Of a DNA stretch of 64,000 nt, positions 11,357 to 13,503 are shown one piece after another. This DNA comes from a virus, in the IMG/VR virus record IMGVR_UViG_3300036832_001373, positions 1 through 64,000 of that record; one strand, 5' to 3'. The translations under genes and the position numbers were made by a program. The notes under the pieces were generated by a model that had not been told where the DNA came from, searched no databases, and was given only the letters and a program-made list of their open reading frames with translations. Numbering within the stretch: position 1 is the first letter of the stretch; every line of letters starts with the position of its first letter.

Positions 11357-13063
11357 ATAAAGCCGGATACAATAACAGACCTGAACCCCCTTTAGCGAGC
11401 CGATACCAGTAATAGACCTGTTGGAAGATAGCGAGCCGATGTTGGCCATAGACCCGATCAACGACAGCGAGCCGGAGTGGAAAATAGACCCGTTCATTGT
11501 TAGCGAGCCGACCCACGACAGAGACCCGGTCACTACTAGCGAGCTGAGAAGTCACAGAGACCCGAGCCCGAGGAGCGAGCCGTCAATATCTAGAAACCCG
11601 AAAACCCGAAGCGAGCCGGATGTACCTAGAGACCCGAAATCGTGCAGCGAGCCGACCTGATGAAGAGACCCGATGATCTCATAGCGAGCCGTGCCGTATA
11701 AGAGACCCGAAAGCGGTTAGCGAGTCGATGACACTAATAGATCCGTAGAGGAGGAGCGAGCCGGGTTTTCCAATAGATACGGAACCAAGTAGCGAGCCGA
11801 CAAGTCGAATATAGATCCGATGAGAGCAAGCGAGCCGACCTGATTCAGAGATCCGAACCGAGATAGCGAGCCGACGCTATGTATAGACCCGAAAGCGGTT
11901 AGCGAGTCGAGATCAGGAAGTAACCCGTCGACGACCAAACGAGCCGTTGCCACGAAGTGACCCGAGAGGTGAGAGCGAGCCGGAGCCAATAAGTAGACCC
12001 GTGCGTACATAGCGAGCCGAAGCGAAGAATAGACTCGTCTAATGCTAGCGAGCCGTACTTCCATATAGATCCGATGACCGACAGCGAGCCGATGTGTGGA
12101 AGAGACCCGAGTGAGTGTAGCGAGCCGTATATTTAGAGTGACCCGAATCAAAATAGCGAGCCGGAACGAGGAGGAGACCCGATGAGAATTAGCGAGCCGA
12201 ACAGTGACAGAGACCCGATGGTGACAAGCGAGCCGACCGAAAGAAGAGACCCGAGCTCCCGAAGCGAGCCGAAGTTCCACAGTGACCCGTTTGCGGATAG
12301 CGAGCCGTGTTCCACAATAGACTCGACGAGCAATAGCGAGCCGAGCGGTGAAGATGACCCGAAGTGATAAAGCGAGCCGAACTATCTTAGAGACCCGAGA
12401 TTCTCAAGCGAGCCGAGATCGGGAAGTGACCCGGATAGAAAGTAGCGAGCCGAAAAGGAATAAAGATTCGACATGTACAAGCGAGCCGATGCTATGAAGA
12501 GACCCGTAAGAAGCTAGTGAGCCGAAACGCTCAAGAGACCCGAAAAATAATAGCGAGCCGTGAGTTCGGAGAGACCCGAGGTACGACAGCGAGCCTAGAA
12601 TGGTGAATGACTCGATATAGCACAGCGAGCCGATGACTACCAAAGACCCGACGAGAAATAGCGAGCCGATGTCAGTTAGTGATACGTAACCTTGAAGCGA
12701 GCCGAGAAGCTCTAAGAGACCCCGGTGTCATGTAGCGAGCCGAAGGAAGGGAGAGACCCGTAATGTTTCAGCGAGCCGAAAGAGGTCATTGACCCGTTAT
12801 GCGAAAGCTAGCCGACCTGATTCAGTGACCCGGATCGACTTAGCGAGCCGTAATCGAAAATTGACCCGGTCAATAGTAGCGAGCCGAAAGACGCGATAGA
12901 ACCGGATAGTGATAGCTAGCCGTGGTGTAATAGTGACCCGAACACAGCTAGCGAGCCGAGGAACGGAAGTGACCCGATTAGAGTTAGCGAGCCGGAGCGA
13001 CGGAGAGACCCGTTCATGTCAAGCGAGCCGAGAAACGTGATAGACCCGATCTAGACTAGCGAG
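11357..13063 (+). repeat. TIGR-type dual-repeat guide-RNA array, 47 units of about 36 nt
   Basis: Alternating edge repeat AGCGAGCCG and loop repeat (mostly AGAGACCCG/ATAGACCCG/AGTGACCCG) separated by variable 9-nt (occasionally 10-11 nt) spacers; edge repeats at 11394, 11430, 11466 ... 13022, 13058. Confidence 0.93.
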
Positions 13064-13068
13064 GTAAA

Positions 13069-13479
13069 ATGAAGAAAATCGACCAGAAACTAGTTGATCT
13101 TTATCAACAAATGCATGAACTAACTCTCCCTGAGTGCAAAAAGTGTAGGGCACCTTTATCTTGTTGTGACAACTTGTATTGTCTGATGGCAGAAGGTTGG
13201 GCAGCCGAGTTTGGAGTAAAACTGGAGCCTACTGGTCATACTGAGCTAAAATTTATGGGACCAAATGGTTGTACAGTACCTCCACATTTTAGGCCCAATT
13301 GTACGTTGCACGAGTGTAGTATAAACTCACTTGGATTCAAACCAAGAAAATCTAACTGGACTAAAGAGTACTTTAAGTTGAGAGACAAGATTATGGAAGT
13401 TGAATACGAAAACGAAGAAAGGGAATCTCGGTTGGGAGCCGTTAAACCCCGGGCGGGGCGGAAAAACGCCGATGAATGA
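13069..13479 (+). CDS. Cys-rich protein (YkgJ/CxxCxxCC-like metal cluster) embedded at the array end
   Basis: CKKC...CC...C, GCTV...RP.C..HEC; RBS GAGG provided by the final edge repeat. Confidence 0.6.
   Translation: MKKIDQKLVDLYQQMHELTLPECKKCRAPLSCCDNLYCLMAEGWAAEFGVKLEPTGHTELKFMGPNGCTVPPHFRPNCTLHECSINSLGFKPRKSNWTKEYFKLRDKIMEVEYENEERESRLGAVKPRAGRKNADE
13419..13446 (+). promoter_or_regulatory. Phage promoter motif copy inside the 3' end of the Cys-rich gene
   Basis: AAGGGAATCTCGGTTGGGAGCCGTTAAA, same spacing. Confidence 0.5.
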
Positions 13480-13503
13480 AAGTGACCCGAATCCGCTGAG
13501 CGA
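13468..13503 (+). repeat. Orphan TIGR unit
   Basis: GCCG-ATGAATGAA-AGTGACCCG-AATCCGCTG-AGCGA. Confidence 0.8.

Follow-up and report, generated by a model that had tools for sequence, protein, structure and literature searches.

The closest described relatives of the locus reported here are the dual-repeat tandem interspaced guide RNA (TIGR)-TasA systems, in which a Nop-type Tas protein without a nuclease is accompanied by an array of 36-nucleotide (nt) units with 9-nt spacers, with 5' truncation of the first edge repeat and 3' truncation of the last (Faure et al. 2025, PMC12045711). Edge and loop repeats of such arrays begin and end alike (AG...CCG), a requirement of box C/D logic, and the array, usually of 5-15 units, yields mature guide RNAs (tigRNAs) of 36 nt, each spanning the interval between the midpoints of two successive edges (Faure et al. 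2025, PMC12045711). Processing of minimal arrays depended on full edge repeats, and a rho-independent terminator after the array is typical, not obligatory (PMC12045711). The cut within the edge is made, in dual-repeat systems, by a Y/H dyad of Tas; TasA functions as a transcriptional repressor guided by RNA, and arrays occupy varied positions, even inside tas (bioRxiv 10.64898/2026.09.09.750476). Here we analyse a locus of this type in a 64,000-nt stretch of viral DNA (positions 1 to 64,000 of IMGVR_UViG_3300036832_001373; hereafter the window), the first 64 kb of a 147,529-bp phage record, in which a gene for a cysteine-rich protein lies between the array and a single orphan TIGR unit.

The question to which this locus speaks is how TIGR arrays are assembled, how they grow and how they are expressed; as published work has noted, genomic sequence alone cannot show whether tigRNAs are co-transcribed or have promoters of their own. 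The window shares with the dual-repeat TIGR-TasA systems the nuclease-less Nop Tas, the spacer and unit lengths, the truncated end edges and the AG...CCG identity of edge and loop. It departs from them in its 47+1 units, in the lack of a terminator after the array, and in what we read as a foreign gene set into an edge repeat, with an open reading frame (ORF) that ends in a spacer. In the described tasParB-tasA operons, too, units are found upstream of, downstream of, between and within the genes of the locus, and subarrays a few hundred nt apart have been reported (PMC12045711; bioRxiv 10.64898/2026.09.09.750476). There, however, the neighbouring gene is tas or its recurrent partner tasParB, whereas the gene embedded in the window shows no linkage to tas elsewhere and is absent from a sister phage. 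Phage morons are autonomous gene cassettes inserted between conserved phage genes, and the window resembles them in having a small accessory gene absent from a collinear relative, a phage-like base composition and a promoter-like element. It differs in that the promoter-like element lies downstream of the gene, in that there is no terminator, and in that the insertion would be into a guide-RNA repeat instead of an intergenic gap. A passenger gene inside a TIGR edge repeat is thus a modest new variant of a known system, and the finding by itself a small piece of phage genome plasticity.

The last edge repeat and the orphan unit

We read the window as carrying a standard phage dual-repeat TIGR-TasA locus whose array has picked up a passenger gene in an edge repeat, and put the probability of this reading at roughly 0.72 (features in Table 1). 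The array lies beside a Nop-type Tas, alternates edge and loop repeats in a 9+9+9+9 layout, and has a 5'-truncated first edge (GCCG at 11362, ...AAAGCCG) and a 3'-truncated last one. Between 11394 and 13022 the full edge AGCGAGCCG occurs 46 times at the 36-nt period with at most one mismatch, against 3.98 matches expected, and the loops are of the AGAGACCCG type. Where the next edge is due, the repeat breaks off, in register, after AGCGAG, and the letters that follow are GTAAAATG. The remnant of the edge together with the next G forms GAGG (13061-13064), 4 nt before the ATG at 13069, so that the broken repeat supplies the sequence of a ribosome-binding site (RBS) for the 136-amino-acid (aa) cysteine-rich ORF. 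The other half of the edge, GCCG, reappears beyond this gene as the first letters of a complete unit; in the entire genome of 147,529 bp, the unit pattern is matched nowhere else beyond the array (32 forward matches, none in reverse and none in a reversed control). The orphan unit ends AGCGA|CACC. The break in the repeat, the RBS that it supplies and the complete unit led by the missing half had all been noted in the first-pass annotation of the window, and each of these observations stands.

Taken together, AGCGAG and GCCG make up exactly one edge, with an overlap of 1 nt. In this lineage arrays naturally end in ...AGCGA at the 3' side and begin with AGCCG... at the 5' side. Since the left piece in the window is one base longer than this and the right piece one base shorter, the two look like a single cut edge and not like natural ends. 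This bears on a different account of the locus, in which no edge was ever split and two independent arrays, one of 47 units and one of a single unit, flank a resident gene with their natural truncated ends. TIGR arrays can indeed occupy several places around tas genes (bioRxiv 10.64898/2026.09.09.750476). Against this account stand the one-base deviation of each piece from its natural counterpart and, in the nearest relative, L017 (described below), a terminal unit that is contiguous with the array beside the same downstream gene, and we regard it as very unlikely. The arrangement is also not an assembly artefact, since both junctions recur in a further contig, L130 (1,688 nt), which matches window positions 12777-14464 at 100% identity. 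The segment between the half-edges has a GC content of 41.8%, compared with 40.7% for the genome.

Table 1. Coordinates of the features of the TIGR-TasA locus in the window
Feature	Coordinates	Strand	Remarks
Promoter-like motif AGGG-N16-CGTTAAC	9923..9957	+	ahead of 71-aa gene, tasA and array; 33.3 bits
tasA	10182..11309	+	375-aa TIGR-associated Nop-domain protein without nuclease domain
Leader hairpin	11318..11358	+	13 bp; between tasA stop and first unit; followed by GATAAAGCCG
Main dual-repeat TIGR array	11362..13063	+	47 units, 36-nt period, 9-nt spacers A and B
Left half of split edge, AGCGAG	13058..13063	+	in register, 36 nt past the edge at 13022
Putative inserted segment	13064..13467	+	404 nt, or 405 counting the ambiguous G; absent from L017
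136-aa cysteine-rich ORF	13069..13479	+	conserved domain aa 1-115 = 13069-13413
Degenerate motif copy	13420..13446	+	in 3' tail of the cysteine-rich ORF, 22 nt upstream of orphan unit
Orphan TIGR unit	13468..13503	+	GCCG / spacer A ATGAATGAA / loop AGTGACCCG / spacer B AATCCGCTG / AGCGA
Downstream 161-aa gene	13557..14042	+	RBS AAGAGG 13545-13550; directly after array in L017

Comparison with an uninterrupted relative

Because 3' truncation of the last edge is normal in TIGR arrays (PMC12045711), the AGCGAG at the end of the main array is not in itself evidence of a break, and the case for an insertion must therefore come from comparison with a relative. The closest TasA that we found (P0166, 86% identical) is encoded on a 43-kb contig, L017, that is collinear with the window on both sides of the array, the synteny continuing downstream. 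Common to both are the leader hairpin, the array start ...GATAAAGCCG and the edge and loop repeats. The L017 array, which comprises 29 units by direct reading (27-28 by pattern scans), is uninterrupted and closes with ...AGCGAGCCG-AAAGCTCAA-AGTGACCCG-GCGTCCCAT-AGCGA, the same final letters as the orphan unit. It abuts the RBS of the next gene, the ATG of which follows 22 nt later. This 164-aa gene (12240-12734) shares 56% identity with the gene beyond the orphan unit in the window, which is called at 161 aa in L130 as well. No cysteine-rich gene was found in L017.

Since the L017 array runs without a break into the homologous downstream gene, the orphan of the window is best explained as the displaced terminal unit of the array, and the two loci form a natural before-and-after pair. 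The first-pass annotation had suggested looking for related arrays that lack the insert, and L017 is one. Its proposal that a gene was inserted into the repeat is supported by this intact array abutting the homologous downstream gene; the accompanying idea, that repeat-mediated recombination did so, finds no footing in half-edges that share a single G.

The opposite polarity would have the embedded gene ancestral to the TIGR lineage, with nothing inserted in the window and the gene lost from L017 by an exact deletion. Only one comparator lineage speaks to the direction of change, and embedded genes are not rare, since genes between subarrays, which lie at least 300 nt apart on one side of tas, are seen in about 8 of about 70 distinct TasA contigs. 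Because the flanks share only one G, though, the window is much more likely to have gained the segment than L017 to have lost it exactly: homologous recombination could not have removed the segment, and an illegitimate deletion would have had to restore a perfect AGCGAGCCG by chance. In addition, none of the other TasA loci examined carries the gene, and in L009, the nearest phage that has it, it sits in a different neighbourhood. We consider an ancestral gene improbable, if somewhat less so than a pair of independent arrays.

Under the preferred reading, that of an insertion into the array, a segment of about 405 nt would have been inserted into the last full edge at, or no more than 1 nt from, the point at which arrays naturally begin and end (AGCGA|GCCG). 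It would have brought with it a gene from a widespread phage family that exists independently of TIGR systems, along with a weak copy of the phage's promoter-like motif, leaving 47 units upstream and displacing the original terminal unit to its present position. The cysteine-rich gene would then be translated from a read-through transcript of the array, with the edge remnant GAGG as its RBS, and the inserted ORF, having no stop codon of its own, would cross the motif and end in spacer A of the orphan. From the motif, transcription of the orphan and of the genes beyond it may start anew; in the relative, these would simply be co-transcribed with the array. On the insertion reading, the window shows that a TIGR array can accommodate a protein-coding gene exactly at the boundary of two units.

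Several points weigh against this reading. The usual 3'-truncated end of TIGR arrays is expected to account for part of the split-repeat appearance at any gene flanked by subarrays, and the putative polarity of the change is drawn from one comparator lineage, L017/L018. The units of the window and L017 arrays cannot be matched one to one, few spacers being shared, and a search of the genome for a donor site of the insert yielded neither a paralogue nor a similar flank.

Other interrupted arrays

A second array of this kind interrupted at an edge is found in L015 (= L023, IMGVR_UViG_3300010362_000056), where positions 4787-6412, between two subarrays, encode a DUF3846 protein, a PF03692 CxxCxxCC protein and an unknown protein of 197 aa. 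The facing subarray ends, AGCG|T-ATG and TTG|AGCCG, again combine into a single edge with an overlap of 1 nt. The truncated edge is followed at once by a start codon, and the next subarray begins right after a stop codon. L015 thus resembles the window in its edge and loop repeats, which are the same, in its TasA (59% identical), in having genes between subarrays and in the overlap of the split edge. It differs from the window in the size of the intervening block (1.6 kb, three genes), in a split that lies 2 nt further 5', and in a downstream subarray of 12 units instead of one.

The centre of the edge is both the point of tigRNA cutting and the point at which arrays naturally begin and end. 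Conceivably, it is also a preferred site at which the array opens at the DNA level as units are gained, lost or shuffled, with the occasional capture of foreign genes. The two independent captures, in the window and in L015, each of which splits one edge with a 1-nt overlap, would then be natural scars of array growth. We offer this as a speculation with rather little chance of being right. In a further TasA-associated array, that of L038 (edge AGCGTGCC, loop AGCAACCC), a non-repeat stretch of about 240 nt without an obvious ORF interrupts the units at 7215-7455.

The cysteine-rich family and its relation to TasA

An exhaustive HMMER search placed the cysteine-rich protein in a family of 428 representative clusters at E<=1e-3, 264 of them at E<=1e-10. 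In a 40-sequence alignment C23, C26, C32, C33, C68, C78 and C83 are invariant and C38 is nearly so; judged by this alignment and by its size, the eight-cysteine family is real, large and uncharacterised. The closest homologues, at 72% and 71% identity, are 116-117 aa long. Residues 116-136 of the window protein are not conserved and read through the promoter-like motif into the orphan, the stop codon (TGA, 13477-13479) lying inside its spacer A. Since homology stops at residue 115 and the closest relatives have 116-117 aa, this 21-aa tail is a product of local read-through. The public gene call P0001 (97 aa, 13186-13479) starts at the internal Met40 and therefore misses the N-terminal CxxC...CC cluster common to all family members.

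The AlphaFold2 model of the protein has a mean predicted local distance difference test score (pLDDT) of 93.6, the tail being of lower confidence. Foldseek found no match to this model in the PDB at E<=0.001, and the best VIA-align score (Z 5.0) fell among helical noise. Searches of Pfam, PHROGs and PDB sequences with the 136-aa protein gave no significant match, nor did single-sequence searches of viral contigs and GenBank phages give any match at all; the family emerged from the exhaustive HMMER search only. Presumably the protein is a small metal-binding one that holds zinc or an iron-sulphur cluster.

PF03692, or YkgJ-type, domains are putative zinc- or iron-chelating domains. The window protein resembles these CxxCxxCC proteins in its N-terminal CxxC...CC, in a C-terminal GC-x(7-9)-RP-x(1-2)-C-x4-C, in its small size and in its occurrence in phages. 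It differs in the lack of a Pfam match and in the spacing of its motif (CxxCx5CC as opposed to CxxCxxCC). Hints of a relationship were an Atlas feature score of 0.85, to be taken as a lead only, and a single one of 40 family members that matched at E=0.017; a comparison of the family with an alignment of phage PF03692 proteins by hhalign was insignificant (probability 0.45%, E=0.13).

The first-pass annotation had put the protein forward as a candidate partner of TasA and had suggested checking its co-occurrence with tas genes. We looked for such co-occurrence in both directions, using alignment A3 for the family loci, as alignment A1 was too diverse for this search. With a hidden Markov model (HMM) of the family, no member was detected in 86 TasA-bearing loci with flanks of up to 10 kb on each side. 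Conversely, a TasA HMM and an array scan found neither TasA nor a 36-nt-period array in 31 viral loci of the family (538 kb), and both were likewise absent from the family loci L009-L012, which brings the family loci without either to 35. The nearest phage with the gene, L009 (71% identity), has no array. For co-occurrence, this is the outcome that the first-pass annotation had itself named as refuting its idea. The candidacy of the cysteine-rich protein as a TasA partner was rejected on this lack of co-occurrence both ways, and a tempting but wrong lead is thereby removed.

What might still be said for a dedicated TasA accessory factor, recruited into the array for the sake of co-expression, is the position of the gene, embedded in the array transcript with an RBS made from the edge repeat, and the recurrence of proteins with a similar motif at TIGR loci. 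A PF03692 CxxCxxCC protein is encoded between the subarrays of L015 and others no more than about 2.5 kb from TasA in L034 and L036, and the window protein has a CxxC...CC motif with faint hints of PF03692. Beyond the empty counts above (0 of 86 TasA loci, 0 of 35 family loci), this idea is opposed by the TIGR locus of the nearest relative, L017, which works without a cysteine-rich gene, by the insignificant profile-profile comparison, and by the frequency of PF03692 itself, which occurs in 3 of about 75 TasA contigs versus 0 of 31 control loci, not a significant difference. We therefore hold a role as accessory factor to be highly improbable, and on its distribution the gene looks like a passenger rather than a partner.

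The PF03692 proteins of L034 (3587-4120) and L036 (2685-3284) are encoded 1.5-2.5 kb upstream of TasA, and that of L036 is 45% identical to its counterpart in L015. Their proximity to TasA may reflect a shared phage backbone and not a functional link. A weaker suggestion that could be added is that phage TasA arrays repeatedly acquire metal-binding CxxC...CC proteins as neighbours.

The promoter-like motif and expression of the orphan

Upstream of the orphan the first-pass annotation had noted a copy of a motif that recurs in the phage. In the window AGGG-N16-CGTT is present in 14 copies, where 0.73 are expected, all of them on the + strand; 12 of the 14 share a longer consensus and stand on the coding strand, 20-45 nt ahead of start codons. 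The consensus of the motif reads approximately TTAGGGAAACT-N7-xGGAACGTTAAC. When a weight matrix trained on 17 copies, with that at 13420 left out, was run over both strands of the genome (295 kb), 18 sites exceeded 12 bits, 17 of them on the + strand and six outside the part used for training. The copy at 13420 is among these 18 and, at 18.3 bits, the lowest; most others score 27-46, and there is no other between 12 and 18. It is a genuine copy, if a degenerate one. The motif is a putative promoter. Further sites in the genome (G000) include 117613, 119234, 132210, 143485 and 144189 on the + strand and 93957 on the - strand.

Syntenic copies of the motif are present in L017 ahead of the tasA unit, at position 9751 (the counterpart of 9923..9957 in the window), and downstream of the array region; between its array and the next gene no AGGG-N16-CGTT was found. 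In the window, the copy at 9923..9957 likely marks the start of a transcription unit made up of the 71-aa gene, tasA and the array. No terminator-like site was found in 13000-13600, no sigma-70 or terminator signal rose above shuffled sequences, and no Rfam family was detected in 9800-14200.

These observations raise the question of whether the orphan is a functional single-guide gene, transcribed independently from the 13420 motif, an idea that is compatible with the insertion reading. The motif copy is clear of the background and lies 22 nt upstream of the unit, other copies precede start codons at 20-45 nt on the coding strand, and the unit retains all elements of a mature 36-nt tigRNA, namely CCG, spacer A, loop, spacer B and AG-CGA. 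Yet the copy is the weakest of its kind (18.3 bits as against 27-46 for most) and the role of the motif as a promoter is itself putative, the leader RNA of the orphan folds no better than shuffled sequences (z = 0.1 to 1.3), and the 5' half-edge is gone, where published minimal arrays were processed only with full edges (PMC12045711). An independently transcribed, functional orphan is thus possible but doubtful. Its maturation in particular is in question, because the upstream half-edge that the Y/H dyad of TasA would need for the 5' cut has been lost, and we give the orphan roughly one chance in three of maturing into a tigRNA. As a natural single-unit 'array' behind a promoter-like motif and without an upstream half-edge, it offers a test case for what the 5' maturation of dual-repeat tigRNAs needs, and for the plasticity of arrays.

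Guides, leader hairpin and tasA

A scan of all 48 units for 18-nt targets in the 147.5-kb genome (both geometries, gaps of 0-2 nt, up to 2 mismatches) returned three self-targeting matches, about the number expected by chance, and none from the orphan. Within the window array, 9-nt spacers recur as 4 near-identical pairs, compared with 0.57 expected from shuffles. Spacer B AAAGCGGTT is repeated in the units at 11688 and 11870, and ACCTGATTC is found at about 11838 and at 12815; AAAGCGGTT and AGGTACGAC are common to the window and L017 arrays (L017 unit at 12110). From the spacer sequences, such recurrence and sharing suggests either duplication of units or common targets.

The leader hairpin ahead of the first unit has a minimum free energy of -29.2 kcal/mol (z = -2.9). 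Its stem is kept in L017 (11129-11167) and in L131 (about 1757-1795) despite changes on both arms, which read GGGACGGGAG/CTCCCGTCCC versus GGAGAGGTAG/CTACCTCTCC among the three related loci. The hairpin may fix where the first tigRNA begins at its 5' side, or it may influence read-through out of tasA.

TasA matches phrog_4285 in PHROGs at 3e-26, and in a search of PDB sequences its C-terminal 96 aa align with the solved TasH (E=1e-4); a Pfam search gave no match to Nop. The processing dyad of SpTasH, Y289/H296, aligns with Y356/H363 of the window protein, and among 35 TasA homologues (alignment A2) Y356 is invariant and G362 nearly so. On these alignments, the window TasA keeps the Y/H dyad for edge processing in its C-terminal loop. 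In all, 185 homologues of TasA were found. A single-sequence search of viral contigs gave no match, and an alignment-based search led to 80 viral loci, in all but five of which a 36-nt-period array lies beside the TasA gene. Near the N-terminus of the window TasA (aa 40-110, 10300-10520) is an acidic, lysine-rich, low-complexity insertion of about 50 aa that is also present in its two closest relatives; the TasA proteins with this insertion measure 372-375 aa, compared with about 320 aa in most homologues.

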